From: Patescibacteria group bacterium | Lineage (GTDB): Bacteria > Patescibacteriota > Patescibacteriia > Magasanikbacterales > GWA2-37-8 | Direction of reading: 5' to 3' | Length of the DNA stretch: 64,000 bases | NCBI GenBank assembly: GCA_041651015.1 | Contig: JBAZKA010000002.1 | Location: 137,269-201,268 of the forward strand | Shown: positions 1 through 49,086 of the stretch, piece by piece | How positions within the stretch are numbered: position 1 is the first letter of the stretch | How the letters are laid out: each line of letters begins with the position of its first letter | Position numbers and translations under genes: made by a program | The notes under the pieces: model-generated | Told to the model about the DNA's origin: nothing | Databases searched by the model: none | What the model saw: only the letters and a program-made list of their open reading frames with translations

Positions 1-464
1 ACACACAAGCCGTGGAAATTTTGGAGAAGTCCGGTGAAAAATTTGAATATCCGGTTGGCTGGGGTAAAGAACTGCAAACCGAGCATGAAAGATATCTGAC
101 TGAGGTGGTTTATAAGAAGCCGGTTTTTGTCACGGATTATCCCAAGGAGTTCAAAGCGTTTTACATGCGCCAAAATGATGATGGTAAAACCGTGGCTGCC
201 ATGGATTTGCTCGTGCCCGGTATTGGTGAAATTATCGGCGGCAGCCAGCGTGAAGAACGTTTGGCTAAATTGGAAACGCGTATGAAAGAATTAAACTTGA
301 ATCCGGATGATTACTCATGGTACTTGGATTTGCGCAAATACGGCGGTGTACCGCACGCGGGATTTGGCCTTGGCTTTGAACGCCTGATAATGTATTTAAC
401 GGGCATGGAAAATATCCGCGATGTGATTCCGTTCCCGCGGACGCCCAAGAACGCGGAATTCTAA
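1..464 (+). CDS. asnS: asparaginyl-tRNA synthetase, C-terminal fragment (5' part outside window)
   Basis: Class II aaRS motif 3 (GFGLGFERL) and AsnRS-type C-terminus [15 protein letters not shown]. Reading frame is open to the window edge. Confidence 0.8.
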
Positions 465-477
465 ATTAAAAAAATAA

Positions 478-516
478 ACACCGTTCGGATTATTACCGAT
501 CGGTGTTTTTTGTCGT
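478..516 (+). terminator. rho-independent terminator after asnS
   Basis: Imperfect GC stem acaccgttcgg/ccgatcggtgt followed by a T-run. Confidence 0.55.
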
Positions 517-835
517 ACTCTGTGGTCTGTGGTCACTTTGCTCGGACACGCGAATTTAGATATGAGATTACGACCAGTATGCCGAGCTCAATGATTAGAA
601 GTCCGGCCGGAATCATGGAAAAATACATTACTGTGTTTGTCTTTTGGTTGTCTTGCGTCGCAGTAGATACCAAAAAAGCGGTGACGACGACGAGGGCAAA
701 AATGGCCATTGTTAGATAACACAACGTGTAAATTTTGTTCGCTATAGATACAAACCTTGTTGTCATTGGGCGCATCCTTTCGTTTGAGCGAGCAATAGCT
801 GTAAAAAGAACGCTTACGGCATTGATATAATGTCA

Positions 836-1816
836 CTATTTTAGGTTCGGGTCAAGTGTTATAATTACCACCTCCGGTATGGCAAATAATCTAAGCGGCG
901 CGCCGGATTCACCCGCGCCCACTGAGATATAAATCGGCGAGCCGTTGTAATAATTCATACCACGATAGTATGAATTTTCCAGAATTGTCTGCGCACCGGC
1001 GAGAGGCCCCCAAAGCGGTATCCAAATTTGTCCGCCGTGGGTGTGTCCGGCGAGGGTGAGCGTAGGATACGCAAAATTCGCCGGGTAAGATAATATCCCG
1101 TCCGGGTTGTGAGTAATAAAGATTAGCGGTTTGTCTTCGTCCCAATTATTTAATTCCGAAAAATCCGGTTGTTTATTTTTCCAAATATCATCAATGCCGA
1201 ATAAGCAAATTTTTTGATTGTTTATTTCCGGACAGACGATATTATTTTTAAGTAAAGCAATACCCATTTCACGCATGCGATCGGCTAAAATTAGAGAACG
1301 ATCGCCGGTATGCTTCTCCGGTTTGTCAATAATGTGTCCGCCGATGCCGTATTCATGGTTGCCAAGAACGTAATATACAGGATAACGGCTGACCAAATTT
1401 GCCAGTGGTTCCAAATATTCGCTTTCGTCTTCAAAAGTTCCTTCGTTATCAATCAAATCTCCGCCAAGAATTACGATGTCCGGATCATTGGCAATAATTT
1501 TTTTTACGATTTTTTTCACCCAATCGGATTTTTTCCATTGGCCGACTTGGATGTCCGAGACAAAAGCGATCTTAATCTGGTGCTGTAATTTATTATCGTT
1601 TAATTCTACTTTCGTCGTTTTCAAAATAAATGGTTCCACGAGCGTAGAGTAAAAAGCAAGAAAAATTCCCAGAACAAGAATTGACAGACATAAAACCGAT
1701 AGTCGTCTGTGGCGCGCAAAAAATAATTCCGGTTTACGCCGGTCGCGGATAATAAAAAATATCATGATCGCCGCCACCGCGACATAACCGTATGTGATAA
1801 TGAGGAGAAAATTCAT
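836..1816 (-). CDS. membrane-anchored metallophosphoesterase (calcineurin-like)
   Basis: N-terminal TM helix. Phosphoesterase motifs GDLIDNEG, GNHEY and GHTHGGQ. Low GC like the host. Confidence 0.75.
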   Translation of the reverse strand: MNFLLIITYGYVAVAAIMIFFIIRDRRKPELFFARHRRLSVLCLSILVLGIFLAFYSTLVEPFILKTTKVELNDNKLQHQIKIAFVSDIQVGQWKKSDWVKKIVKKIIANDPDIVILGGDLIDNEGTFEDESEYLEPLANLVSRYPVYYVLGNHEYGIGGHIIDKPEKHTGDRSLILADRMREMGIALLKNNIVCPEINNQKICLFGIDDIWKNKQPDFSELNNWDEDKPLIFITHNPDGILSYPANFAYPTLTLAGHTHGGQIWIPLWGPLAGAQTILENSYYRGMNYYNGSPIYISVGAGESGAPLRLFAIPEVVIITLDPNLK

Positions 1817-2058
1817 AGTGCCCTTGAGTTCGTATTTTCCGAAATTGATGAGTTATACAAAATGGCTAAAACAACGATACCTGAATTGGGCGAAGCTGTC
1901 AATTCAATAGAAATGTGAGTTATTATTCCGAACTGGCCCCCACTGCATTGCCCTGATTACGTATTCATTAAAATCGCCAGGTTTTACAGTTCTGTTGTTT
2001 CAGCATAATAACTTCATCGACCTAGGAATCTATTGATTTTCAGTTCGTCAATGCCACA

Positions 2059-2883
2059 CTATTCCCACAAAGATATGCCCAGCATCTTGCTTACCATCGA
2101 ATCGTATGAAAAAAGTATATGGTTGGACATCATCGTGTTTTCTTGGATCCTATCGATTGTCCATGCAATTGCTTGTAAGTCAGGTTGTCTGATAGAAAAA
2201 GAAAAACTGCCAACCGTGAGATCTTCAACAGCGCCGGATTCTGAATTTTGAAAGATCATGCCATCAATGACCCGATAAATAAAACATTTTCCAGCAATAT
2301 GGATAAAATCAGGGCGTCTGTTAATGGGAATACTATGGTTAATTAAGTAGTATTCGTTGACGTGGTTAAATATTGTATCAGGGGCAATCGAGTCCGTTGC
2401 GTAGATTATTTTGACTGGCCAATTGTCATACTTCCCATATTTGAGCTGACTACTAATCCTTCCTTTAAGGTCTTTCACCGGTGGAATTGAAGCAATGCCA
2501 TCAAGTGCATCAAATAATTCTTTTTTATCTAATGTTGACTTAATGGAGACAACCCCAAGCGTCCCTTCTATCGGTGAAAATGATTTTCCTGATCCATCTT
2601 GATTGTGGAGGTTAAAACGCGGTGTGGTGTCAGTTGTGATGATAATATCGAGTTGCTTGGACTCCACGCCTTCTTCATCAAAAATGAAACCGCCGAAGAA
2701 AATATTGCATTTCGATGGGATGTGCTGTTTGAGAAATTCGGCATAGATTTTCTCTCTTGAGGTGCCTATGTCTGTGCAATTTCTAAAAACGGAAGCAGCC
2801 TTGGCTTCTCCACGAAGAACTTCGGCGACTTTCAGGTAGTATTCTCGCAATCTAAGGAAGATATTGTCATTTGTTTTATTCAT
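2059..2883 (-). CDS. hypothetical protein, possible nucleotidyltransferase-fold (weak)
   Basis: 274 aa. FFGGFIFDEEGVESKQLDIIITTD resembles a Gly-rich loop plus acidic strand of Pol-beta-like NTases, but the second acidic residue is not clear. Low GC. Last gene before the GC jump. Confidence 0.35.
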   Translation of the reverse strand: MNKTNDNIFLRLREYYLKVAEVLRGEAKAASVFRNCTDIGTSREKIYAEFLKQHIPSKCNIFFGGFIFDEEGVESKQLDIIITTDTTPRFNLHNQDGSGKSFSPIEGTLGVVSIKSTLDKKELFDALDGIASIPPVKDLKGRISSQLKYGKYDNWPVKIIYATDSIAPDTIFNHVNEYYLINHSIPINRRPDFIHIAGKCFIYRVIDGMIFQNSESGAVEDLTVGSFSFSIRQPDLQAIAWTIDRIQENTMMSNHILFSYDSMVSKMLGISLWE

Positions 2884-3144
2884 TATTTATCCTCCATGGC
2901 TAGAAAACTTTTCAATCTCTCCCTCCTTCGAACCCACTTATCCACAACATGAACACGGATCCGCCGTTTTAGCCCCCTCTCGGTTGTATTAAATATCAGC
3001 TACACTATTCAGCAAGCGATCACCGGGAGAGGACTACAAACAGAAATTTAGTTTTCGTTCTCACCTCAGATCGCGATTATTCAAATGGCTCTAGACAGGC
3101 CTATCCAATCGCAGAAGGGAGGTGAGATGCACAAACGATAACAG

Positions 3145-7641: not shown

Positions 7642-8172
7642 ATGGACTGGAGACGACGAAGGCAGATCCGCCAGTTGGCTGATCGTGTGCGAGATGCCCT
7701 CAAGTTGGAAGGCCCCCCTTATGACGTCGAGCTAGCAGTAAAGCTTCTGAACGGCACTATCGTAGCTCCAACTGACTGGCTGACAGAAGCCCTTGTTCGC
7801 AAGAATGGCGAGTCCTTCATCATCGAGGCAACAAAAGCAGCGTCATCGGAACGACAGCGGTTCTCTATAGCTCATGAGTTGGGCCACTTGTTCCTTCACA
7901 TGGGATATCTGGTTGATATAGACACTTGGAACAGCATCAACGAATACCGCGATTCCCCCATGTACCGCAGGGGACATAGCGAAGAAGAATTCGAAGCCAA
8001 CGAGTTTGCCGCCGCCTTCCTCATGCCAGAATCTGACTTCCGAAAAGTGGCCGAAGAACACAAGGTCGGTTGCAGTTACCGAACAACGGACATCGCACAA
8101 AAATTCGGTGTCTCCATGCCAGCCGCCCAAAACCGCGGTAAATGGATAGGCCTTTTCGACTGGAATTCATAA
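7642..8172 (+). CDS. ImmA/IrrE-family zinc metallopeptidase
   Basis: HEXXH motif (AHELGHLFLH) followed by EANEFAAAFLMP, the downstream Glu motif of the ImmA/IrrE (DUF955) fold. Stop abuts the start of the next gene (8172/8173). Confidence 0.7.
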   Translation: MDWRRRRQIRQLADRVRDALKLEGPPYDVELAVKLLNGTIVAPTDWLTEALVRKNGESFIIEATKAASSERQRFSIAHELGHLFLHMGYLVDIDTWNSINEYRDSPMYRRGHSEEEFEANEFAAAFLMPESDFRKVAEEHKVGCSYRTTDIAQKFGVSMPAAQNRGKWIGLFDWNS

Positions 8173-9459
8173 GTGCCGAAAAATATAGAACTCATCCAGC
8201 AAGAATTGGGCTCGGCCCCTGTGGAAACCTCCGACCTGCCTCCTGCCCGCGTGTATCTCTTCATTTCGTTTGACTTAGTGAACTCTACAATTTTCAAACA
8301 GCGTGAAGAGAGTTGGCCCACGGTTCTTGGGACCTTCTACAGAAGAGCCGAGCATGGGATAAACGCTCGGGTCGCAGGCGCAACCGTTTGGAAGTACGCT
8401 GGCGATGAGGTTCTGTTCTGGGTCGCTCCATCATCGGCTGAAGAAATGTGCAAACAACTCGACGGCGCGTATCAGGTGCTGCAAGAGTTAGATCGTGAAA
8501 TGGACACTACCTCTAACCGTCGTCTTCGGGTGAAGGGCACCTGCTGGATAGCTTTAGCCGAGCCAGAAAGTCCAGAGAATTTGCGGAGCCCTGATAGACC
8601 CAAAGCACCCAATCTCATCATCTCCCAACCGCTCGAAGCGAATCCACCGACTCGTGATTTCGTCGGGCCTGATATTGATGCTGGATTCAGACTAGGTGCA
8701 TGCACGTTCAAGTCCACTTTTGCTGTGAGTGCTGAACTAGCGGCGGTTCTTTTAGATAAAGCGCCGATGCCAATCGCTAATAATCTTCATGTTGTCGGGT
8801 ACAAGAAATTGAAAGGTGTATGGAAGGATCGTTTCTACCCCATCGTTTGGTATCGCAAAGAGCTGGATAATGGCTTTGAATATGATGATAAATACGAGAA
8901 CGAAATGCTCGCCAATGGCATTGCAGAGAAGGAAAAAAAAGCAGCCAAGATCGAAGAACTGAAAGACGCTGTCCATAGCATTCGAACCGGATACGTTAAG
9001 CAGCTACTCGATGCCTTTGAACGACCAGCATTGGAAATGTCACCTACGCCGCGTCTGGAAGTACACTGTGCTGCAGCGTGTCGCCGTAGCAATGGCGACG
9101 TTTTGGTCGCCCAGCGCCAAGCAGATAAACGCATCCATCCGGAGAAGTGGGAGTTTGGTTGTGCTCAACTTCGACTCGGAGATACGTTTGAGGAAGCGCT
9201 CGCTCGAGATTACAGGGATGATTTCGGTGCTGAACTCAACTTCCCCGCCGACGCCCATGCACTGGCAACCTACAGTTTTGAACGCGATGGAAGGAAGATT
9301 CCTGGTGTCATTTTACTCGCGATTGTCACAAATCCCGAAGACTGCAAAGCACACAAGCATCAGAATATCCGCTGGATTAACCCCAGCGACCCACCACATG
9401 ATGTGGTCGAGAATGCTGTCCCCGATCTCGTGAAGGCGCTTTCTCGACTTGCGAGTTGA
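8173..9459 (+). CDS. class-III-nucleotidyl-cyclase-like domain fused to NUDIX hydrolase domain
   Basis: N-terminal F-x-D-L-x-x-S-T (FISFDLVNST), K-x-x-GD-x-x-L (WKYAGDEVLF) 44 aa later, and G-x-x-I-D-x-G-F-R-L (GPDIDAGFRL). C-terminal NUDIX-box-like GDTFEEALARDYRDDFGAE. See findings. Confidence 0.5.
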   Translation: MPKNIELIQQELGSAPVETSDLPPARVYLFISFDLVNSTIFKQREESWPTVLGTFYRRAEHGINARVAGATVWKYAGDEVLFWVAPSSAEEMCKQLDGAYQVLQELDREMDTTSNRRLRVKGTCWIALAEPESPENLRSPDRPKAPNLIISQPLEANPPTRDFVGPDIDAGFRLGACTFKSTFAVSAELAAVLLDKAPMPIANNLHVVGYKKLKGVWKDRFYPIVWYRKELDNGFEYDDKYENEMLANGIAEKEKKAAKIEELKDAVHSIRTGYVKQLLDAFERPALEMSPTPRLEVHCAAACRRSNGDVLVAQRQADKRIHPEKWEFGCAQLRLGDTFEEALARDYRDDFGAELNFPADAHALATYSFERDGRKIPGVILLAIVTNPEDCKAHKHQNIRWINPSDPPHDVVENAVPDLVKALSRLAS

Positions 9460-13759: not shown

Positions 13760-13786
13760 AGCCCGCCAAAAATGGCGGGCTTTGTA
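13760..13786 (+). terminator. hairpin after SprT-like gene, at the boundary of the low-GC islet
   Basis: Stem agcccgcc/ggcgggct with a weak T-run. Confidence 0.4.
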
Positions 13787-13871
13787 TGTCACACCTGTAC
13801 CCCTTGACACTTTTTTATTTTTCATATTTTATTTCTATTCTATTTCGGTTTTTCCAAACAGGAGGTACATT

Positions 13872-16718
13872 TTGTCGTTTGATTTTCAAACAATAGTTTC
13901 CGACATTTTAGAAAAACAATCTCTTGTTAGTTCTCCTTACCACAAAGCTTATCACGCATATATTGTAAATTGGCTAACAAACAGATATAAAGACAAATAT
14001 CCATATGTTACGCTTGTTGGTGTCGGTGGAACCGGTGTAGTTCTCGGCTTCTCTGACACCAGTTCTTCTCCTTTGAAATGTATTAAATACCCTGTTTCTT
14101 CATTTGGCACGACTGGCAATTTTACTCCAGGGCACGTCATCGAAACAGAAGCAAATCGTCTTACACAATTAAGTCATCAGAATATTTTACACGTTGACGA
14201 AGTAGGTAGTGTTCCTGTTGTTGATAATAGTGATGATTTCTCTCTAATCGACAACGAGGGCGAGAAGATCCCTTTCTTTGTAATGCCCTTCATACCCTGT
14301 AAAAATCTTGCTGATTTTCTTAAAGAAGATAGACCTATCGACCAAATCGTTTTGCTTACCATTCTCGCCCAAATTGCGGAAGCACTTGATTACGTACATC
14401 ATCACCATTTAATTCATCTCGATATCAAACCTGAAAACATTTTTGTTGATTTCACTTCTCCTGAGATTATTAACGCCAAACTCGCTGATTTTGGTTCGTG
14501 CAAAGAAATTTCTGTTGGTTCCACTTCCAAATCCATTGTCCTTTGCACAGATGGATATATACATCCAGATCTTTTAAACATTATTAAACAAGGGAACGAT
14601 AGCGATGCAAGACGTTTTCGCAATAAAGTTCCTAAAAGCATTTTTGATTCGAGATTTGATCGCTATTCTTTCGGAGCAACGATTTTGGATTCTGTTTACT
14701 TGTTTCTATCCAACAGTGTAGGAAGATCCGTCTCTCCCTATATGCTTCGTGCACTTCAGTTTATTTCTTTGAAGTGCGCCGATGGTTATGCAAATCACAT
14801 GGCAACACATCCTCGTCGCAAATATCTCGCACCTCCTGATCTTTATAACGATTTACTTTCAAAGAAAGTATCCTATGCTAGCACTACAGAAGTTCTCCGC
14901 GACATTCAAGCCGTTATCTCCAATGGGGATGGTTTCACAGAGCAGGAACTTCTTGATAGTTCCCAGGGAATCGTTTGTTTACCACCACGGTCTTTTGCGC
15001 CGTTCCCAGATAGAGTGCAACAGACTGTCGATTCCACGCCCGTTCGTCGCCTTTCAAGTATTTCACAGTTGGCTCTTGTATATCATGTATATCCAGGCGC
15101 TTCTTACACAAGAAAAGAACATACAATAGGTGTTTTTGCGACAGCCGCAGTTCTTTTGCGCCACATCATTAAAGATAGCAGAAATCCACTCGGCGTGCTA
15201 CTGCTTACACTAAAATGGCAGAGAGCTATACTGTTAAGCTCTCTCTGGCACGATATATCACATATTCCCTTAATGCATGAATTCGAAGATTCGATACCAG
15301 AATTGAGTCAAGGGTACTATTTTGCAAAAATTATGGAAAAGGACTTTGGTTCATTGGCTTTTCAAAAGGAAATTGATACTATTTTGGCTCTATGGAATCT
15401 TACCAGAATTGATGTTGTTTTGGTTCTCGGCAAAAAAAAGAACTTCGATTATCGTAAATGGAATCTTGACGAAGCCCAATGGGATTTTTTATGGGAACTT
15501 CCCGAAAGGCAGCTTTCTGCAAGTATTCTAAACAGTGCTGTTGATGCAGACAAAATGGATTATCTTCAAAGAGACGCTTTACATGTAGGTGTTCAATATG
15601 GTCACACAGTAGATCTTGAGAGGCTTTTCCGCAGAGCAACAGTCGCACTTACAGTGAATACAAATAAAAGGGATGGAACCACGATTACTTCCTTTAAATG
15701 CAGTTTAGGCTTCTGGAGTACAGGTGCAGCAGCTGCAGAAGCTGTAATTGAAGCACGACACAACATGTTCAATCAGGTTTATGCACATAGAACAGTTCGT
15801 GCTTCCAGGGCTATGCTGAATTATATTGCATGGAATTGGCGTTGTAGTATTGAGGAAGGAAAGACATATCGCCCTAATAGTTTGTTTGTAAGAGGTAGCT
15901 CTTTGTGCCCTAGCGGAAGCATCCTATCGCAGATGAGAAAACAGACTCAAAAGCAAATGCAAATGGATGAAATTGGTTCCACTGCCTTTGCTGAAAATAG
16001 AACACTGAATGTTTCCGAAAAACGTTTTGAAGATAAGCTGCGTGATAATTTGCCATATTTGGAATCGTCACTGATAAGATGGTTGGCGGCGCAATCCGGG
16101 AAAGACGAAGCGGTATTAATGGCCGAGTCGTTGATACAAAGAGAATTGTATAAGGAATTATTTGTAATAAAAATTGCGAAAGTTCAACAGTTGTTTGATG
16201 CAATATACTCAACAAAAAAGGACACCGAGAATGAATCAAAGTATGAAATGAACTTTCGGTGCAATAATTGGTTAGGGCTTATTGATTTCATAGAAGCAAA
16301 ACTTAAGGAATACATACAAAATGAAGAAAAAAACAAAAGCGTGGCTATATCAATGGAGCAACTAGAGAAATCGAAGTTGCCTTGTTTATTGGTTGATTTT
16401 GCGTTGCCTAAAACAATGCGTGGGCAACCTATACTATACCTGGTGAGCGAAGAAATGAGATCTGGTGTTGGTTGGGAAAAAGTTAGAAAACAAAATCCAA
16501 GCGGTGGAAAAGAAACTTTATCTGGCATGATCGTTGAGAAGTCGAGAATTTATGAGTTGTTCGGGGGAGGGGTATCGGAAAGCAAGTGGTTAACACCTGT
16601 GATTAGAGTATTCGCGTCGAAAGAGATAGCAAATGTATTACGCAGACATCTTCACGAAGAAACAGTAATCGAATGGCTAAATAGATATTTACAGGATGGA
16701 AGAGCTGTCGTGGAATAA
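13872..16718 (+). CDS. Hanks-type Ser/Thr protein kinase fused to dGTPase/SAMHD1-like HD domain
   Basis: Kinase motifs GVGGTGVV (Gly loop), HLDIKPENIF (catalytic loop), KLADFGS (DFG). C-terminal HD motifs H...LWHDISH and VDADKMDYLQRDALHVGV (dGTPase/SAMHD1 signature). aggagg RBS then TTG at 13872. The ORF is open from 13782. GC is ~38% inside a 65% GC region. Confidence 0.6.
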   Translation: MSFDFQTIVSDILEKQSLVSSPYHKAYHAYIVNWLTNRYKDKYPYVTLVGVGGTGVVLGFSDTSSSPLKCIKYPVSSFGTTGNFTPGHVIETEANRLTQLSHQNILHVDEVGSVPVVDNSDDFSLIDNEGEKIPFFVMPFIPCKNLADFLKEDRPIDQIVLLTILAQIAEALDYVHHHHLIHLDIKPENIFVDFTSPEIINAKLADFGSCKEISVGSTSKSIVLCTDGYIHPDLLNIIKQGNDSDARRFRNKVPKSIFDSRFDRYSFGATILDSVYLFLSNSVGRSVSPYMLRALQFISLKCADGYANHMATHPRRKYLAPPDLYNDLLSKKVSYASTTEVLRDIQAVISNGDGFTEQELLDSSQGIVCLPPRSFAPFPDRVQQTVDSTPVRRLSSISQLALVYHVYPGASYTRKEHTIGVFATAAVLLRHIIKDSRNPLGVLLLTLKWQRAILLSSLWHDISHIPLMHEFEDSIPELSQGYYFAKIMEKDFGSLAFQKEIDTILALWNLTRIDVVLVLGKKKNFDYRKWNLDEAQWDFLWELPERQLSASILNSAVDADKMDYLQRDALHVGVQYGHTVDLERLFRRATVALTVNTNKRDGTTITSFKCSLGFWSTGAAAAEAVIEARHNMFNQVYAHRTVRASRAMLNYIAWNWRCSIEEGKTYRPNSLFVRGSSLCPSGSILSQMRKQTQKQMQMDEIGSTAFAENRTLNVSEKRFEDKLRDNLPYLESSLIRWLAAQSGKDEAVLMAESLIQRELYKELFVIKIAKVQQLFDAIYSTKKDTENESKYEMNFRCNNWLGLIDFIEAKLKEYIQNEEKNKSVAISMEQLEKSKLPCLLVDFALPKTMRGQPILYLVSEEMRSGVGWEKVRKQNPSGGKETLSGMIVEKSRIYELFGGGVSESKWLTPVIRVFASKEIANVLRRHLHEETVIEWLNRYLQDGRAVVE

Positions 16719-16721
16719 AAA

Positions 16722-16748
16722 ATCCCCAAGAAAACAAACTTGGGGAGA
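16722..16748. terminator. bidirectional hairpin between convergent genes
   Basis: Hairpin ccccaag-aaaacaaa-cttgggg flanked by A/T runs. Confidence 0.5.
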
Positions 16749-16769
16749 AAGAATTCGATGCCTTTGATT

Positions 16770-17510
16770 TCAAGAATCGATCGGATTCAAACCAAGAAGA
16801 AAGAATCCAACATTATCGTCTCTGTTTCCGTCCCATACATTGCAACGAAGACCTGATTTCTCAAAAGTAATTGTCACTACTCGGCCACGTGAGTATTTAT
16901 CGTCGGTGGATACACTTAAAAGAGAGTCGGGCGCTCGACAGCCGGTTTCTCTAAAATGGGAGAAAACGAGAGGGACAATAACCGAAATAGAACCTAAAGA
17001 AAGGCAATGGACTTCTGGAAGACCGTTGAGTTCGCGTAAGATCCGTAAATAGTCATTCTGTTCTGCAAACGAACGACTAGTACTCGATTTAGCAACGACT
17101 GGAATCCAGAAAGCAATTGCTGGCAAAGATAACTCTTTACATTGATGTAGAGCTTCCTTATTTAAAAGAACTCGACCGCCACAAAAGGGGCCTGTTTTAC
17201 TGCCGTTTTCAAACAGACTGAATCCCTTGCGTAAATGCCAACAACAAGGGCCGTTGTAATCCACAGATCTTGAGTAACTTCTCCAGGCTGATACGGTTGA
17301 GGAAGGCTCACAGCAAGCATTTCTGTGAAGAAATGTTACTGCTTCCTCATCTGTAAGTGGAGTGGCGAAGGTATATTTCTTTTCTTCTGAAAGAATATTC
17401 CCTATCATGGATTTCAATAGCACTCCATTGTTGATTATAAAACGACGTTCGTCCACGTTCAAAGAGAGAAACAAATTGGAGATTTCCAAGAATGACACGT
17501 CTTTCGGCAT
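16770..17510 (-). CDS. hypothetical protein (Cys/His-rich)
   Basis: 246-aa low-GC ORF convergent with the kinase-HD gene. CCEPS...CCWH motifs. No recognised domain. Confidence 0.45.
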   Translation of the reverse strand: MPKDVSFLEISNLFLSLNVDERRFIINNGVLLKSMIGNILSEEKKYTFATPLTDEEAVTFLHRNACCEPSSTVSAWRSYSRSVDYNGPCCWHLRKGFSLFENGSKTGPFCGGRVLLNKEALHQCKELSLPAIAFWIPVVAKSSTSRSFAEQNDYLRILRELNGLPEVHCLSLGSISVIVPLVFSHFRETGCRAPDSLLSVSTDDKYSRGRVVTITFEKSGLRCNVWDGNRDDNVGFFLLGLNPIDS

Positions 17511-17979
17511 GACACGCTCCTTGTAAATGTACAGACAGTAAAATTTTACTGTCGGAAGGTGCGAATCGTCGCGTCCTCCACTATTTCGTCCAGTTGATAA
17601 ATAAAAGCAGTCTTAAAATACGACTTGATTGTTGAACTTCATAGTGGAAGACATGAACTGAGACACATTAAGTGTATCACAAACAAGGAACATATGTCAA
17701 ATACAATACATGGTCACCCTGATGTCAAGCATTGGGGCTTGGCGCGATTTAGTCAAGACCCAACTACAATACCAGACAGCGCTATCGAAAAGACCATAGG
17801 GCACTTGAAAATATAAAAGATTAAAACTGCTTGCTGTTATAAAAATAGCTTTATCCATCTATATTACAATATTACCGTCCTGAGATGCACCGCAAGAAGC
17901 TTGCGAATGCTCAATAATATGAAAAGCGATTTTGTCTTTTTACAAAACAGGTATCGCATCATTGAGAATATGAAGGTTT

Positions 17980-18031
17980 AGCACTGGCAACTCCGCGGTG
18001 CGAGGCCCATGGGGTCCAGTTGCCAGTGCTG
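17980..18031. repeat. 13-bp inverted repeat hairpin at low-GC/high-GC junction
   Basis: Arms agcactggcaact and agttgccagtgct separated by 25 nt, followed by cttttat. Confidence 0.5.
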
Positions 18032-19069: not shown

Positions 19070-22402
<3,333 letters not shown>

Positions 22403-22579
22403 CTTCTCTTCCTCCCCGAGCCGCGCCTCAGGCGCACGAGCGTTCACGGTGTTTCCGCACGGCCCGCTGTTGTCCCATCTCTCAAGGCGCACTCCCGCCG
22501 CCGATGCCGGGACCATCCAGGGGCACCGGCGGACGGGACGTGCGAGGACCCCCGCGTTCAAAGCGGCCGATGCCGCCGA

Positions 22580-23421: not shown

Positions 23422-23664
23422 TTAAGGCGCAACGCGATTGAGCGTGTGCACGCCGAGAGGTAGATCGTTGCGATCAACGATCACGACGTCGGAGATATTT
23501 TTCGTCCAGGTGGCGGCGACATTCTGTGCTTCTTCTTTGTCGTCGTAGCTACCGATGACGACCGCGCCGGGCACGTAGACGGCGTATCTCCCGGACTCGG
23601 TTTTGTTGGGAGAGCGCGCGATGGCACTCTCTACCTCGTAGATCTGGGCGATCCTGTTGGTCAT
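23422..23664 (-). CDS. hypothetical protein
   Basis: 80-aa ORF. Confidence 0.3.
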   Translation of the reverse strand: MTNRIAQIYEVESAIARSPNKTESGRYAVYVPGAVVIGSYDDKEEAQNVAATWTKNISDVVIVDRNDLPLGVHTLNRVAP

Positions 23665-23849
23665 GCGAGCCTCATGTAAGTCGGTTGACGGAACATACCA
23701 TAGCTGTAATCGACCGCCTTCCTATAATTCTGAAAAATTGCAACAAGGACGTTACGGGCTCGGTTTCTCGCAGTTCCCACGGTCATGACCGTTGCGCGGG
23801 CCTCAACCGGGATCCATGGTAGTCACGTTCGCGTCAGTCGGAGGGCACC

Positions 23850-24206
23850 ATGGCCGAGAAGAAATCAGCGGTGCTGTGCCAGAGTTGTGGCATGGCGATG
23901 TATGATGCGGAGAACTTTGGTACCGATGCCCAGGGCAACCGGGTGAGTGATTACTGCCGGGACTGCTTCCGGAATGGAGGCTTCGTAGAGCCGGAGCTGA
24001 CCATGGAGGTCATGATCCAACGGCTTTCCGAAGGCATGTTCCGGTCGGAACAAGAACCGTCGATTAGAGACTCCATCGTTAATTTTATCGGCAGCCTCGA
24101 GCGGTGGCACGGAGAGCTTTGGACCCCTCCGCCATCGACTATTTCGGTCGTTGAAGACAACGAGGAAACGCCCGGAGGCTTGAGCTCGTCGTTCAGCCCA
24201 AGGTAG
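23850..24206 (+). CDS. hypothetical zinc-ribbon protein
   Basis: CQSCG...CRDCF motif. Confidence 0.4.
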   Translation: MAEKKSAVLCQSCGMAMYDAENFGTDAQGNRVSDYCRDCFRNGGFVEPELTMEVMIQRLSEGMFRSEQEPSIRDSIVNFIGSLERWHGELWTPPPSTISVVEDNEETPGGLSSSFSPR

Positions 24207-24440
24207 AGCCGCCGAACAAGAAAGAGAATGCCCCTCAAGGCGAACGCCTTCCTGATTTGTCTGTCTGCACCCGCCGATCTGTCTTTCGATTCTTTGCCGC
24301 GGAAAGGCAGTGGAGCTTGTTGTCTATACGATTCCGTCCATCGGGTTGACCGCGTTGAGCGGGATCTCGCGCACGACGTGCTCGACCGGGAGTTCTGGGG
24401 ATGACTCAGCCAAAGCTGCTATTGCAGTGTTGGACACATT

Positions 24441-24782
24441 GTGATAATCTACTTATTAGACGCTAAGTCTGTATTAATTAATGACATAACAATACTTATG
24501 GAAATACACGATCGATTTTCTGAGAATCCCGATGGGATTGATGTGGTTGGTTGTAATTCTTACTCAGATTACCAAGAACTCGCGGAGAAACTTGACAAGG
24601 AAGGATATGTTTTTGCACATAATATGCTAAAATCAGATGCAAAGCAATGGTTTGACAATAGTGGCATAAAGAAAGATAATGATGTGGTTTTTACAAGCGC
24701 CTTCTCTCGTCCGAATGAGATAAAATTGTACGGTGAGCCCGTGAAGGGCTACGTTGGAATTTGGTGCAGACAGGGTAAATAA
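24441..24782 (+). CDS. hypothetical protein (low GC)
   Basis: 113-aa ORF convergent with the cyclase-CSD gene. Confidence 0.35.
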   Translation: MIIYLLDAKSVLINDITILMEIHDRFSENPDGIDVVGCNSYSDYQELAEKLDKEGYVFAHNMLKSDAKQWFDNSGIKKDNDVVFTSAFSRPNEIKLYGEPVKGYVGIWCRQGK

Positions 24783-24821
24783 AACGAAGGATCAATCAGA
24801 GTATTTATTTGGCGATAGTAA

Positions 24822-25967
24822 TCATTGGATCTTTATCGGATAGTAACCAGCGGGACCTTTTTCATTTTTATCGATAGTAAAGTCGATGGTCATTCCACGT
24901 GACCACGCGATGGATTCGTCGAGTAGAATGAAGAATTTTTTGGTCCCCCCATCCTTCGTTTCACAAGATGCAAATCCGTAACCTTTTATAACTGTATCCA
25001 ATCTCCCTCTTAGAACTTCTCCAAATCTAATCACATAAGTAGCACGCCGACTTTTTCCTTTCGCAAGAGAAAGTGCAGGTATAAACCAGACTTCTTGGTC
25101 TACCTCTATTCCTAGTCCATTCTGAAACAAACAGTCTGGATTAAACCAGAAATCTTCATCTCCGGGGCCTGAGATGAAACCATAAGTATCTTTTAAGGAA
25201 GAAATGCGTCCCATTATCCACTCGATGTTTTCAGATTGATTTTCCCTGGGACTGATTTTAATCGATTCATCGTTTTGTTTCGATGGTGTATTGGCCAACA
25301 CAATGGTCTGGCCAAGACTCGTTTTTGTAATATAGGGTGTGCTGACTCCATATCTTTGGGCCGCCCACATTATTTCGTAATATCCAATAGGACGGGAGAA
25401 ACCTTTCGCTGTGACAAATTCCTCGTTGCCTTGGTAGTCGGAAACTTTTCGTTTAGGAGACACGTTTCTTCCGAGCCGGGATGAAATTCTATTCATCGCG
25501 GCAGCGGCTACTGTATCATTGTCGACAAAAACAGCGTTAGATTTTGCTGCACTGCAAAGACGAAAAGCCCTATCAGCTACTGTGCCTATATAGTCCTTGC
25601 TTCCTTCGGTTACATCAAATTCGATTACTTCACCATAAGACACACCAACCGAACAACTGCATGAAATCTGGTTTTGCTCCCTGGCAACTGCCATGGATTC
25701 CTGAATAAATATTGACCAGTTGATAGCTTCCGCCACATGATCCTCGGAAAAGACTGACATAGCACCATCACCAAGAAACTTTACTATTGTGCCTTTGTAC
25801 TCTTTGATGCTATTAAAAAGCAAATCGAAAAACCATGCATATTGTGTGAGCCATGTTGCTTCCGACTGTTGCTCTTTCATGCTCGTGGAATCGGTAAGAT
25901 CAACAGCGACTATTGTTTTCATAACTCTTGAATTTGGATCGCGAAAAGTTTCATGTAATGATGTCAT
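24822..25967 (-). CDS. class-III-nucleotidyl-cyclase-like domain fused to two cold-shock (CSD/OB) domains
   Basis: Cyclase-like VAVDLTDST, KFLGDGAM and GTVADRAFRL. Two CspA-like modules: DTYGFISGPGDEDFWFNPDCL...GIEVDQEVWF and IKGYGFASCETKDGGTKKFFILLDESI...TIDFTIDKNEKGPAG. GC ~40%. Confidence 0.55.
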   Translation of the reverse strand: MTSLHETFRDPNSRVMKTIVAVDLTDSTSMKEQQSEATWLTQYAWFFDLLFNSIKEYKGTIVKFLGDGAMSVFSEDHVAEAINWSIFIQESMAVAREQNQISCSCSVGVSYGEVIEFDVTEGSKDYIGTVADRAFRLCSAAKSNAVFVDNDTVAAAAMNRISSRLGRNVSPKRKVSDYQGNEEFVTAKGFSRPIGYYEIMWAAQRYGVSTPYITKTSLGQTIVLANTPSKQNDESIKISPRENQSENIEWIMGRISSLKDTYGFISGPGDEDFWFNPDCLFQNGLGIEVDQEVWFIPALSLAKGKSRRATYVIRFGEVLRGRLDTVIKGYGFASCETKDGGTKKFFILLDESIAWSRGMTIDFTIDKNEKGPAGYYPIKIQ

Positions 25968-26877
25968 GGACCCTCCTTTGGAATGATGTTGTCATTCAAT
26001 ATATAAACACGCGTACTAGTTTATCTCCTTCATTGGTGAAAACTTCCTTGGTGGTGCTCGAATGGAATTATGCGTTTGTTTTCTTTACAAGAATCCGTTC
26101 CTGTGGTGAGCCCCCGTTGGGGCACGGTGGAAAGGGCTCGCCCTTAACACACGTAGTTTCTTTACCGCAAAGTTTGCATCCGAATACGCCGGACTCAGGA
26201 ACGACTTGGACAGATTTGTACCCCATTTTGAACTCCTATGTTACCGACATCCCTAAAGCGGGATATTGGATAATTATCCACGCGAAAAATCGAAATAAAT
26301 CGATTGCTTCTAACAGGGAGGAAGAGGCAAGCTTCAGAAACTTCAACTAGGATGTGAAATGTAGTTCGTCTTGAGAAATATGTTTTTCCGCATGCAGATT
26401 TTCGGAAACCATATCCTTTCTTCCATTGTGGGAAATGCCACCACTGCAAAACACAGAACATAACGAAATTACCAAAAGGCAAACATCGGAATAATAATCG
26501 CACCTCGTGGGAGAAAATCAAGAGGTACAGGTGTGACAATGATAAGCTAAAAATCGTTATACGCATAAAAGACGAGGGCTAATAACGGAATACGAAAACA
26601 AACCTCTGGAAAAATGAGATACGCGATCAGTGTTCCTTCAGTTTTTGTGTCCGAATCGGAGTCGATATCGGTGTTGTCGTCCTCAACATGAAGAGCGATT
26701 TCACCCGTATTTTGTGGATGATCAATGTCTCGCTTCCGAGACGATCGCCCACTTCGGCATCGGCGACTGCCGCTGCGGCGATATTTTTCATTTCATCGTC
26801 ATCGCCCTTGCTCTCCACACCGGACGCGATCCAAAATCCGATCTGCATTTCCGGAAAGCGACCGCGGAGGGACTTCG

Positions 26878-27327
26878 ATGGATACCCAGATCCTTTCAAC
26901 CGAAGACATTGCGCTTCAGAGCATCGACGAGCTTCAAGACCGAATGGAGCGTATCACCCTGTCGTTTTACAAACGGATGTCCTCGATGTCCGAGTCCTCC
27001 CTTTCTCTCATCGCCTTCACCGCGCTTCGCTACATCCACGCGTACGGCCCCGCGACCGTCGGGAAAATATTCTCGGCCATCGCTCGCTCGCAGAGCACGA
27101 CCTCCGAGCTCCTCACGCGTTTACGCAAGCACGGCCTTGTTGAGCACAATAGGAACGACAAGGATGGCCGAGTGGTAAATATTCGCATCACAGGCAAAGG
27201 GCGGAGCGCTTTGGCGAGCGCCGAGGCCAAGCGCGACGAGGCCTGGCGCGATCTGCTCGGTCATCTCGATGAAAACGATCGGCAGACCTTGATCGCCGCG
27301 ATGCGGCAAATCTGCGCGATACTCTGA
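26878..27327 (+). CDS. MarR-family transcriptional regulator
   Basis: MarR-like wHTH (ATVGKIFSAIARSQSTTSELLTRLRKHGLVEHNRNDKDGRVVNIRITGKGR). ggaggg RBS with ATG at 26878. Confidence 0.6.
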   Translation: MDTQILSTEDIALQSIDELQDRMERITLSFYKRMSSMSESSLSLIAFTALRYIHAYGPATVGKIFSAIARSQSTTSELLTRLRKHGLVEHNRNDKDGRVVNIRITGKGRSALASAEAKRDEAWRDLLGHLDENDRQTLIAAMRQICAIL

Positions 27328-27338
27328 CCGGAGAACCG

Positions 27339-27692
27339 ATGAACAACATGAACCCTTCGACAAACACACCGGGGCAGGCTCCTCCCAAAAGAGGCGGCTA
27401 CGGACGTCTCGCGATAGTGTTGCTTTTACTTCTCATCGCGGTCTGCGGTATCGGCTATCTTTATCTGCGTATGACGCTCGCGGAATTCGAGCGCGACAAG
27501 GCCGTCGTAGAAAAGCAACTCGCTGACGCGCACGCCACGGCGAGCGCTGTTGATGCCAGATACAACGCGGCGATCGCCGCCTGCACCATGCAGGAACAGA
27601 CCTGCCGCGTCGAGCTCGACAAGTGCAAGCGCAGCATGCAGACGATGGTGGAGACGCCGCCAGCGCTTACACCGGCGCCGAGCGTCATGTAG
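27339..27692 (+). CDS. membrane-anchored hypothetical protein
   Basis: One TM helix (LAIVLLLLLIAVCGIGYLYL) with a coiled-coil-like tail. Confidence 0.4.
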   Translation: MNNMNPSTNTPGQAPPKRGGYGRLAIVLLLLLIAVCGIGYLYLRMTLAEFERDKAVVEKQLADAHATASAVDARYNAAIAACTMQEQTCRVELDKCKRSMQTMVETPPALTPAPSVM

Positions 27693-45919: not shown

Positions 45920-46318
45920 TTGACAATTATTGGTATTTCTGGTAGGCTTTGTTTAGTTCACTTCTTGGTATTAGTTACATACCAACCAACTGGCCCCTTC
46001 GGGCCGTTTGGCTGGAGTTTTCGTGGGGCCGAGAAAGGACGGCCTATCGTGCCCCACAAAACAAAAGAGGATTTGGTTAAAGAAAGAAGAAAGCTTATAG
46101 AAGAACAGATTATCTCCCTGCATCTGGTCAAAAGACGGATGGGATGTGATTCAGATGATGTTAATCTATCACTGGCTGGTCTGTTTATTGACGGCGGCCC
46201 TCTGTCTGAAAAGCAAGCTCTTTTACTTAATCACACAAAACACTGCGAACCTTGCCGTCTTCTTTGTGATCTTATCACAAAAACGATTCGGCTTGACCGT
46301 CTTGAAAATTCATTGTGA
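45920..46318 (+). CDS. hypothetical protein, zf-HC2 anti-sigma-like motif
   Basis: LLNHTKHCEPCRLLCD resembles the zf-HC2 anti-sigma N-terminus. Start uncertain. Confidence 0.3.
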   Translation: MTIIGISGRLCLVHFLVLVTYQPTGPFGPFGWSFRGAEKGRPIVPHKTKEDLVKERRKLIEEQIISLHLVKRRMGCDSDDVNLSLAGLFIDGGPLSEKQALLLNHTKHCEPCRLLCDLITKTIRLDRLENSL

Positions 46319-46375
46319 GATTGCGACAGCAGCGCGTATTTTAAAATATCAAGTTCGGACATTACAAGCTCTCCA

Positions 46376-48802
46376 TTGGAGAGCTTTTGTTTTTATCCCA
46401 TGAAAGTAAAAAGAAAAAAGCTTTCACAGTTAGAATTGGAACGGTTCGTAAACGAACTGTACGCCAAAGCCAAGATACGGTCGTTTTTATCTGATTTGGA
46501 AGCAGTCGATCGGTTGCAACGTTTTTCTGATTTATCGAGCGAGTTCGGTGTTAGCTTTTCGAAAGATGAATACAAGAGAATATTTAATGACATCCAATAT
46601 TCGGCTTTTTACGAGTTACAAGAAAGAAGTGAAGACTCGATAGAAGAATTGCCCGGAGATGAAGACGAGAATCCTGGATTTTTGCTAGACGAAAGAAAAA
46701 AATATATAAAACATTTGGTAGAAGAACGTGAATCAGAAAAAAGGTTAGAGGAGCGAAACGCCCTTGAAACAGAATGTTCGATTGATTCGCCAACTCAAAA
46801 TGAAGCAAATGAAGACAAGAGAACCTTTATCGACTTTCTTGCACCAGTAATATTTGATCTTGTAGGAAAGAGCAACCCGTCTATTGTTGGTGTCTATCAC
46901 CTGTGTTGTAGGAAAGGCTTATCCCCGAAAGCGGCAGCAAAAGAACTGGAACTCACCGAGGGTCGAGTCTCTCAAATTAAGTCAGAAATAGTCGAGGTTT
47001 TTACAAAACACTATCCCAAAATCGCAAATGATAGGAAGAAATTCCAAGAAGCTTCAAGAATTATAACTCAGTTTTATGTTAGGAAATTAAAGATAGACGA
47101 TCCTGAAACCGTGAGAAAACTTACCGCAGTATTGACTGGCGCAGCCGTCTTCTTCGTAGCACTGATTTCTCAAGCAACAGAGATTTTCACGAGTGATGAG
47201 CTTATTGAAAATATTGCGAGAGGCACCAAGTCAACGTCGCTCTGGCAAGGATTCAAAGATCGCTACATCAACAAAATTAACATATTGTTGTCTCTTGCGA
47301 CAATCATTGTTTTGTCTCCTGCAATATATGAACTATTATCACATAGGCCTCATATAAAACCATCCCAGGGTAATATTACAGATCCAGCTACCGGATCAGA
47401 CGAGAATAACCCACAGAATCTCTTTAAAAATGAGAATGACAGCGGTGCGGTCGACGTAATGAATGGCGTAGAGTACTTGTCATTGCAGATAGAACAGACG
47501 TTTGGAAAAGAAAAATATAAAAACGTTTTTGTAATAAACGGTATTCCGCCAGATTATACAAGGGTGGTTGTGTATGAAATAACGAATAGAAACAAGATTA
47601 ATGCTACACATTTAGACATGAGCGCTGAAGCTTACTTGGTTCCCGCCATTGGCAATTCTAAAATTCCTATAAGTACGATGATACTTACCGCCGATGGTGA
47701 AAACACAAACACGAAGGCGATTGCCACAGAATCATCAGGTGCGGAACCGAAAAAGACTATGATAGTAATAGGTTCAACAATGCAGATAGAGCCGGGCTCC
47801 GTGATAGAAGGTACCTTCAATGTTGACTATGAAATTGGCAATATTAGGAAGAAACAAAGTAGGACTTTTGAAATCAAAGAACCCGGCGCATTTTTATGGG
47901 CCGGGGAATCTGAGATGAGCAGATACGGAGACAAATTGAATAGAAATTCTGTCATAATAGCTTCCAAGGGCGGAACCGCAAATATTGAAATAAGCACATA
48001 TCCCGAAGAAATTCTGGTGGGATGTTTATCAAAACCGAGTAATTTGCCAACAAAAGAAGGTTGCAAGAAGACCATACCAGACATGAGCTTTATTACGGCA
48101 GATATAGTAACGACAACTGATGGCGGTGGTGTCATGGACGGATTTATACGGATCTTGGAGATAGAAACAAAACAATTATTGAATCGAAACTTGGCACAAT
48201 CCAACAAAGAAAACGAACCAATAGCGCAGTGCGATTTGGCAGCCAATATTCTAGGAGTCGAATCTTGCGAAGGTGTTGTACAGGCAGTACCAGAGCAAGG
48301 GAAATTGCTTTTGTTGGATGAAAAGGGAGGATTTTTTCTCTCAGACCTTGACGGCGGGATTGAAAATGAGGACAAATGGATAATAGCCTTTGTTTCGGAA
48401 TCGAAAGGTAGAAAATGGTTTGCGAAAGCTAATGTCAACATTGAGAACAATGATCTGACGAGACTGTCAATAAAGAGTGAAAATGAAAGCGAGAAAACAG
48501 TTTCCTGTAAAACAACTAACAGAGCTGGATTTACGGAAGGATATTGCCTGCCAATACAATTGTCAGCTTACAGAATTGACGATGATACTTGGATCGGAAG
48601 TTATCAATTGTCTGGAATTGTTTATCCACGACAAAAAATGAAAGAGAATTACAAAGGCGCCTTGGCTTTGATTAGATTCTGTAAGTTTGAAGAAGGATGG
48701 AAGCCATGTAGTAAAAAAAGCGGAACACAGTATTGGGAAAAGATAGCAGAAAGAAGCGAGATATTTAATTCAAGTTGTAAAAAAAGTAATTGTTCACTAT
48801 AA
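46376..48802 (+). CDS. membrane protein with N-terminal sigma-70 region-4-like HTH and large extracytoplasmic domain
   Basis: HTH in IVGVYHLCCRKGLSPKAAAKELELTEGRVSQIKSEIV. Two TM helices at ~aa 255-310. ~500-aa C-terminal domain. GC ~38%. Confidence 0.5.
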   Translation: MESFCFYPMKVKRKKLSQLELERFVNELYAKAKIRSFLSDLEAVDRLQRFSDLSSEFGVSFSKDEYKRIFNDIQYSAFYELQERSEDSIEELPGDEDENPGFLLDERKKYIKHLVEERESEKRLEERNALETECSIDSPTQNEANEDKRTFIDFLAPVIFDLVGKSNPSIVGVYHLCCRKGLSPKAAAKELELTEGRVSQIKSEIVEVFTKHYPKIANDRKKFQEASRIITQFYVRKLKIDDPETVRKLTAVLTGAAVFFVALISQATEIFTSDELIENIARGTKSTSLWQGFKDRYINKINILLSLATIIVLSPAIYELLSHRPHIKPSQGNITDPATGSDENNPQNLFKNENDSGAVDVMNGVEYLSLQIEQTFGKEKYKNVFVINGIPPDYTRVVVYEITNRNKINATHLDMSAEAYLVPAIGNSKIPISTMILTADGENTNTKAIATESSGAEPKKTMIVIGSTMQIEPGSVIEGTFNVDYEIGNIRKKQSRTFEIKEPGAFLWAGESEMSRYGDKLNRNSVIIASKGGTANIEISTYPEEILVGCLSKPSNLPTKEGCKKTIPDMSFITADIVTTTDGGGVMDGFIRILEIETKQLLNRNLAQSNKENEPIAQCDLAANILGVESCEGVVQAVPEQGKLLLLDEKGGFFLSDLDGGIENEDKWIIAFVSESKGRKWFAKANVNIENNDLTRLSIKSENESEKTVSCKTTNRAGFTEGYCLPIQLSAYRIDDDTWIGSYQLSGIVYPRQKMKENYKGALALIRFCKFEEGWKPCSKKSGTQYWEKIAERSEIFNSSCKKSNCSL

Positions 48803-49086
48803 TAGATAAGATATCCGTTTCTGCCCCTCCCCACTCCAGAACTGAGGAGTACAATATCCGGATATGCAAAAAATATTCAAGAATTGTCGGCCCGAATATA
48901 GTAAAACCAGCGAACAAACAGAAAAAAAAATTCCGGTATTTGCCGAAGAAGAAATAAAAAACATCCTCGAATTTCTAGGGTGTCTTAAAGATATCTCGGA
49001 AGGACTTTTACGCAAGGGTTATACTCTCGCAGACGGGGTATTCATTCAGCCAAATAACAACAATAAGTCAGTAAATTCATTTCCAT

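Follow-up and report, generated by a model that had tools for sequence, protein, structure and literature searches.

We analysed a 64,000-nucleotide stretch of contig JBAZKA010000002.1 (positions 137,269 to 201,268 of the forward strand; assembly GCA_041651015.1, Patescibacteria group bacterium), which is called the window below. The gene under study lies on its reverse strand and encodes a nucleotidyl cyclase domain followed by two cold-shock domains (CSDs). The following features were identified in this gene, with positions counted from the first letter of the window:

24822..25967, reverse strand: the cyclase-CSD gene, a complete open reading frame (ORF) of 381 residues plus stop in the ORF listing, composed of cyclase, linker, CSD1 and CSD2
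25350..25967, reverse strand: class III nucleotidyl cyclase domain, residues 1-206, based on Pfam, PADLOC, the family profile against PDB, the structure model, Foldseek, conservation and the alignment with Ma1120
25230..25325, reverse strand: disordered linker, residues 215-246, with a predicted local distance difference test score (pLDDT) below 50 at model residues 214-245 and variable, gap-rich alignment columns
25026..25217, reverse strand: cold-shock-like OB fold 1 (CSD1), residues 251-314, with an RNP1-like YGFI and an RNP2-like EDFWFN, based on profile, hhalign, models and Foldseek
24831..25016, reverse strand: cold-shock-like OB fold 2 (CSD2), residues 318-379, with an RNP1-like GYGFA, an RNP2-like KFFIL and a C-terminal KGPAG

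Residue numbers count the initial Met, which is missing from the alignments and models of the tools, so that numbers in the latter are one lower. The 381-residue gene was recovered as described in the original prediction, which had been made from the sequence without database searches, and it has 54 full-length homologs with 30-54% identity. Judged by the family alignment, the ATG at 25967 is the correct start of the ORF, as the N-terminal 15 residues show conservation throughout the family, with L4, F8 and R14 among them. The public annotation of the protein (P0001, 366 residues) begins 15 codons later, at the second Met, and omits 25923..25967 of the reverse strand. As the omitted residues are the conserved ones, the public start is probably a start-codon miscall. 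We regard the domain architecture of a cyclase with a tandem CSD as practically certain.

The cyclase and cold-shock domains

The window protein matched Guanylate_cyc of Pfam (PF00211) with E=6e-4 and 19.8 bits, the cutoff being 21.9 bits, and orthologs exceeded this cutoff with 25.1 and 32.2 bits. A profile built from 22 family members matched solved class III cyclases in PDB at 5e-12. The AlphaFold model of the window protein had a mean pLDDT of 87.6, and with Foldseek it was matched to Cya2, CyaB, CyaC and Ma1120 with E values down to 8.5e-13 and target-normalised template modelling (TM) scores of 0.72-0.89. Based on the model and the Foldseek matches, the cyclase homology fold (palm-like beta-alpha-beta-beta-alpha-beta) is present. 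Hidden Markov models (HMMs), profile searches, Foldseek and confident structure models were all in agreement with the class III cyclase-like palm domain and the two CspA-like OB folds that had been predicted.

The three predicted cyclase motifs were found at residues 20 (VAVDLTDST), 63 (KFLGDGAM) and 128 (GTVADRAFRL), with 43 residues from the first to the second instead of the 40 given in the prediction. Asp23 (in VDLTDST) and Asp67 (in GDG) align with the metal-binding Asp residues of Ma1120 and Cya2; Asp23 is near-invariant and Asp67 invariant in the family. Lys63 and Asp125 occupy the purine-specifying positions and correspond in the alignment to the Lys and Asp of Ma1120, an adenylate cyclase from mycobacteria. 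The family alignments show complete or almost complete conservation of D23, D67, K63, D125, R136 and K188 in both clades of the family. The position of the usual ribose-orienting Asn (GxxxNxxxR) is taken by an invariant Asp132 in both clades, with Arg136 kept. The aligned column holds Ala in the active cyclase Ma1120, and the loss of the canonical Asn need therefore not be inactivating. A single chain carries Asp23, Asp67, the Lys63/Asp125 pair, Arg136 and Lys188, which gives strong support, at the level of sequence, for the arrangement expected of a homodimeric 3',5'-cyclic mononucleotide cyclase.

The C-terminal 143 residues were analysed separately with a profile and a model of their own. 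This profile matched the tandem CSDs of Unr in PDB with both halves at 1.9e-7, and CspB/CspA at about 1e-3 to 1e-4 (CspB 4e-4). In hhalign comparisons against CspA and CspB, CSD1 reached 2.3e-5 (CspA) and CSD2 9e-8 (CspB), and the two domains were related to each other with E=2.5e-5. The separate model (pLDDT 92.2, predicted TM score 0.85) consisted of two five-stranded barrels (5+5 strands), and its Foldseek matches were Unr CSD pairs (5e-7), the CSD pair of RNase R/II and S1 domains. Its comparison with CspA (1mjc) gave a target-normalised TM score of 0.70 and a root-mean-square deviation of 2.9 Å. Single-sequence matches of CSD2 were weak, with 2e-3 for CSD_V of PADLOC and 0.0097 for the NCBIfam model of the retron Se72 CSD effector, and the single window sequence had no match to Pfam CSD (PF00313). 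The relatives P0033 and P0054 carry a precomputed Pfam CSD.

Two of the CSD segments named in the prediction were present, namely YGFI at residue 262 and a KGPxA-type segment (KGPAG) at residue 370; the DxFxHxSxL segment is represented by EDFWFNPDCL, which has no His. Both CSDs keep the RNP1 aromatics (YGFI, GYGFA) and the central RNP2 aromatic, which is W in CSD1 and F in CSD2, and according to the hhalign comparison the equivalents of W11, H33 and F34 of CspA are lost. Because of this mixture of kept and lost aromatics, nucleic-acid binding by the tandem CSD is no more than plausible.

The family and its neighbouring genes

When 1.84 billion representatives were searched exhaustively with the family profile, 161 clusters (50% identity) reached E<=1e-30, nearly all of them 370-420 residues long and matching the profile from end to end. 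With local domain HMMs, 86 of the 150 listed members were scored outright as CYC-CSD-CSD, which is the prevailing arrangement; the remaining ones were mostly fragments or had one CSD below threshold, and three had a third CSD. Cyclase-only loci (L015-L080, L102-L171) came in via a generic GDG pattern and are uninformative. On the evidence of their sequences, the cyclase-CSD proteins are one rare, coherent orthologous family. Its members come from Acidobacteriota metagenome-assembled genomes and from cultured Streptomyces, Micromonospora, Streptoalloteichus and Allokutzneria. The actinomycete clade has about 30% identity to the window protein, with architecture and variant motifs identical in kind, and the window's own clade has 40-54%. 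At most non-actinomycete loci the cyclase-CSD gene is lower in GC content than its distal flanks. Domain combinations of other kinds were also seen: P0195 has an unrelated N-terminal region of about 170 residues followed by the CSD-CSD tandem of this family, and five proteins (P0152, P0162, P0168, P0175, P0199) have an N-terminal extension of about 150 residues and the cyclase domain, with no CSDs.

Pycsar anti-phage systems consist of a cyclase and a PycTM or PycTIR effector (PMC11224242, PMC13069673). With a custom PycTM HMM we discovered a PycTM gene in 11 of the 12 actinomycete loci; in Streptomyces, Micromonospora, Allokutzneria and L099 it lies directly downstream of the cyclase-CSD gene and on the same strand. 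It encodes a membrane protein of 165-174 residues and adjoins or overlaps the cyclase stop. These neighbours scored above the gathering cutoff of PF18967 (PycTM) in Pfam, with 1e-11 to 2e-18, and also matched the PycTM models of PADLOC. A divergent NYN and PycTM pair was found in the window's own clade (L085/L086). Since orthologs stand in operons with Pycsar-type effectors, the protein probably belongs among Pycsar-related anti-phage cyclases and not in an unprecedented enzyme class.

A second type of effector gene occurs in L096 (35% identity), where an integrase, a stand-alone cyclase paralog, the CYC-CSD-CSD gene and a TIR protein follow each other (L096:2458-5174). The TIR domain is of the CAP12/Pycsar type (PF10137, 1.2e-21), and the N-terminus of this protein is LTD-like with no recognisable cyclic nucleotide-binding domain (CNBD). 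The integrase is phage-type. In the 241-residue paralog the first metal Asp is replaced by Glu, the catalytic Arg by Phe and KGF by KSF, which suggests that it is a catalytically impaired regulatory partner or forms a heterodimer.

An NYN gene, predicted to encode an RNase, lies directly upstream of the cyclase-CSD gene in L081 (L081:5012-5830) and L083/L084 (L083:5078-5869), is part of the pair mentioned above in L085/L086 (L085:4662-5486), and is probably present also in L095. The NYN proteins beside close-clade genes belong to at least two dissimilar subfamilies, in one case together with PycTM, and our literature searches gave no link between NYN and Pycsar-type systems. Further defence or mobile-element neighbours of family members were SIR2/SMC (L082), GmrSD and HEPN (L090), methyltransferase, helicase and HicAB (L087), TIR/SEFIR with a kinase (L081) and a recombinase/transposase (L083). 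No shared non-coding element or missed small gene was detected with blastn and tblastx of the flanks in the extended stretches without called genes that lie downstream of the close homologs.

The window locus

The cyclase-CSD gene of the window lies in a low-GC islet with one further, convergent gene candidate:

24350..26700, no strand: low-GC islet of 2.35 kb, about 0.40 GC versus about 0.58-0.62 in the flanks, from the composition profile
24441..24782, forward strand: convergent ORFan of 113 residues from a GTG, or 94 residues from the ATG at 24498

The convergent ORF of 113 residues was already part of the original prediction, as was the statement that no CNB effector is encoded nearby. In agreement with the latter, the ORFs within about 3 kb included no protein with a domain for binding cyclic nucleoside monophosphates (cNMPs). 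The sole database match of the ORFan was itself, and its frame-specific codon bias suggests a real gene. It was rejected as a partner or effector, with tblastn negative in the homolog loci and no Pfam or PADLOC family in addition to the self match. Likewise, a hidden PycTM or NYN gene was not found in any of the six frames of the window with tblastn and the custom PycTM HMM. The approximately 730 bp upstream of the cyclase-CSD gene have no convincing gene. ORF123 (26195..26566), which has a hydrophobic N-terminus, was considered as a decayed PycTM and dismissed, as it had no PycTM HMM match and no frame-specific coding signal. A 52-residue ORF (26068..26226, reverse strand) shares the strand of the cyclase and lies upstream of it at a distance of 100 bp; the ORF shows a zinc-ribbon-like CxxC...C pattern, a weak Pfam DUF1451 match (0.0084) and a modest frame-specific codon bias, and was not found beside the homologs. 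Rfam had no match in 23500-27500, and the only repeats that could have bounded the islet were short and at chance level. We infer that the window gene, a solo copy, was acquired by horizontal transfer.

The islet stands among other defence-like islets, the window being a mosaic of approximately 60% GC background and approximately 40% GC islets (1-3000, 14000-18000, 24350-26700 and 46000-49000). The genes at 836..2883 encode a metallophosphoesterase and a DUF6602/NucC-like PD-(D/E)xK nuclease, the gene at 13782..16718 a 978-residue Ser/Thr kinase that matches the PD-T4-6 and mad6 models, and the gene at 46376..48802 an 808-residue protein with no family.

The window also contains another cyclase-like gene (8173..9459, forward strand, 428 residues), with which the low-GC cyclase-CSD gene had been predicted to share its motif triad. 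The low GC content (about 0.40) was found as predicted, and what the two genes have in common are the variant motifs, with Asp at the usual Asn position (DFVGPDIDAGFRL). The N-terminal domain of the 428-residue protein aligned to the cyclase-CSD profile in hhalign with E=1.3e-5, and in place of the CSDs there is a C-terminal NUDIX domain (Pfam 2.3e-4; PDC-S07 of PADLOC 7e-11). This gene directly follows a CapP-like M78/IrrE peptidase gene (7642..8172; capP of PADLOC 1.2e-27). Genes for a DnaG-like primase and a TrwB-like coupling ATPase are found alongside, which suggests a mobile element. On the reverse strand, 19070..22561 is an ORF of 1163 residues. Its product contains long runs of Asp, Thr and Ser, CDGxDNDCDG repeats rich in Cys, and a hydrophobic segment predicted to resemble a signal peptide. 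This ORF and the GC content of approximately 60% look unlike a reduced Patescibacteria genome, and the bin assignment of the source record may for this reason be wrong.

Proposed function, alternatives and meaning

We propose, with a probability of roughly 0.55, that the gene product is an immune nucleotide cyclase related to Pycsar, in which the C-terminal tandem CSD serves as an integral nucleic-acid sensor. Phage infection would yield single-stranded RNA or DNA, to which the two cold-shock OB folds would bind, and this binding might activate the cyclase, for instance if one strand holds two cyclase domains close to each other. In the relatives the cyclic nucleotide would then act on the adjacent effector, either a PycTM membrane protein or a TIR NADase, and the activated effector would kill or arrest the infected cell. 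The output of the window copy may reach a receptor whose gene lies at another place in the genome, or the copy may belong to a clade that has no dedicated neighbour. A nucleic-acid-sensing signalling enzyme, as had originally been predicted, is still the most plausible mechanism, and the linkage of the orthologs to Pycsar effectors is what that prediction had missed. A more specific version, in which the tandem CSD is the direct infection sensor and the solo clade represents a new wiring (a distal effector, an NYN-type RNase effector or single-gene defence), is possible but doubtful.

How PycC proteins sense infection is unsettled; both direct binding of phage components and indirect sensing, e.g. 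of pH, were proposed in 2024 (PMC11224242). Pycsar clades A-E and the recent clade F comprise stand-alone or double-cyclase forms, some of them with small C-terminal add-ons (PMC11224242, PMC13069673). In a survey of August 2026 the immune cNMP cyclases were divided into stand-alone, bihelical with an AGS-C sensor, STAND-fused, E2-associated and cGMP-making 'Pucsar' branches, with CNBD-TIR and 3TM effectors (bioRxiv 10.64898/2026.08.12.744502). The same survey gives a precedent for a C-terminal sensor on a Pycsar cyclase, the AGS-C of Pycsar-2, and makes no mention of cold-shock, CSD or OB domains. Our full-text literature searches, whose scope did not include the 967 PycC set of the original Pycsar paper, turned up no account of a cyclase fused to CSDs. 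In the CoCoNuT systems, CSDs are predicted RNA-recognition modules (PMC11090510).

The family resembles Pycsar in its class III cyclase, which keeps both metal-binding Asp residues, in orthologs that form two-gene operons with PycTM (PF18967) or stand beside a CAP12/Pycsar-type TIR, and in its defence-island or mobile-element context. The C-terminal add-ons of described Pycsar clades (AGS-C sensor, zinc ribbon, Y-shaped beta structure) are a further parallel, whereas the tandem CSD itself is unmentioned in the Pycsar papers searched. It differs from Pycsar also in its Lys/Asp purine-type pair, in the invariant Asp at the usual Asn position and in the LTD-like N-terminus of the L096 TIR partner. 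The product of Pycsar cyclases is cCMP or cUMP and that of Pucsar cGMP. By sequence and structure the best matches were Ma1120, CyaB, CyaC and Cya2 (5e-12; TM up to 0.89), with which the family has the metal Asp pair, Lys/Asp, the Arg and a C-terminal KG motif in common. Unlike the family, canonical class III cyclases have no described member with a CSD fusion and usually carry Asn where the family has Asp; the family is also rare, shows a horizontal distribution and has links to anti-phage effectors. The tandem CSD has its best structural matches in Unr/CSDE1 CSD pairs and the N-terminal CSD1-CSD2 of RNase II/R, which have two consecutive five-stranded OB barrels with RNP1- and RNP2-like motifs. 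With CnuB of CoCoNuT it shares the possible role of CSDs as RNA-recognition modules of a defence system; the CSDs are here joined to a nucleotide cyclase and not to a nuclease or GTPase. Known CSDs differ in that their aromatic patch is only partly retained here, and the first CSD of the family has conserved W-x-R-G and KNRRA features of its own.

Several observations weigh against an immune cyclase with a nucleic-acid sensor. These include the partial loss of the CspA aromatics and the invariant Asp at the canonical catalytic Asn position. The PycC match of the window protein in PADLOC (1.3e-9) is not specific and was discarded as Pycsar evidence, as control cyclases scored as well or better: six ordinary canonical-Asn cyclase domains without a PycTM neighbour gave 3.6e-10 to 9e-15. 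By sequence and fold, housekeeping cyclases (Ma1120 5e-12) outrank the solved PycCs (7r65 5e-6, 8jsz 4e-3). The Pycsar relationship rests for these two reasons on the gene neighbourhood of the orthologs and not on the cyclase sequence. No PycTM, TIR, NYN or CNB gene was found in the islet or the adjacent ORFs of the window with tblastn, the PycTM HMM and Pfam. Most members of the window's clade are solo (L001, L002, L082, L087, L089, L090, L172, L174), and some of these sit among housekeeping genes, either metabolic or two-component (L089, L172, L174).

The last of these points would fit a physiological, non-immune cAMP/cGMP cyclase that is tuned through its CSDs by cellular RNA or by cold or translation stress and feeds ordinary cNMP receptors. 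Lys63 and Asp125 are at the adenine-specifying positions of class III adenylate cyclases in the Ma1120 alignment, PDB titles call the specificity mutant of Ma1120 'KDA to EGY', and the closest solved relatives are housekeeping cyclases. This explanation requires the effector linkage in actinomycetes to be a secondary recruitment, and we consider it unlikely, given the recurrent tight operonic linkage to PycTM or TIR at 13 or more loci in two phyla, the frequent defence-island and mobile-element neighbours, and the patchy, rare distribution and atypically low GC content that fit horizontally moving defence genes. The solo protein could also be self-contained or differently wired, acting alone through depletion of nucleoside triphosphates or flooding with cNMP, or together with a non-Pycsar partner such as an NYN RNase. 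The recurrent NYN neighbours, the many close-clade members without a recognisable effector and the use of CSDs in defence (the match to the retron Se72 effector model; the CSDs of CoCoNuT, PMC11090510) speak for such a wiring. It is nevertheless quite unlikely: tblastn found no NYN in the window, the NYN proteins elsewhere are of dissimilar subfamilies, the searched literature has no precedent for a single-protein cyclase defence, and the argument for it is wholly inferential. Finally, the window gene might be what remains of a Pycsar-type operon whose effector gene was lost at transfer or later, so that an intact gene is left of a system that no longer works. The 2.35-kb islet without an effector, the approximately 730 bp upstream with only non-coding-looking ORFs and the effector-linked members of the same family agree with this, but the ORF has its full length and has lost none of the conserved catalytic and CSD residues. 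Solo copies are moreover the rule among the divergent members (40-54% identity) and retain all conserved residues, which argues against simple decay and for selection on solo copies. An orphaned remnant therefore seems very unlikely.

If the tandem CSD is indeed the direct infection sensor, Pycsar-type immune cyclases would have in it their first defined module for recognition of a trigger. The fusion of a cyclase to a well-understood module for binding single-stranded nucleic acid leads to a concrete hypothesis, namely that the cyclase is activated by nucleic acid as its ligand. The two-gene operon of cyclase-CSD and PycTM occurs in cultured Streptomyces and Micromonospora, so that a tractable system for study of this hypothesis is available. 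The fact that solo copies are prevalent and that NYN neighbours recur hints at wirings beyond the model of a cyclase with an adjacent effector.

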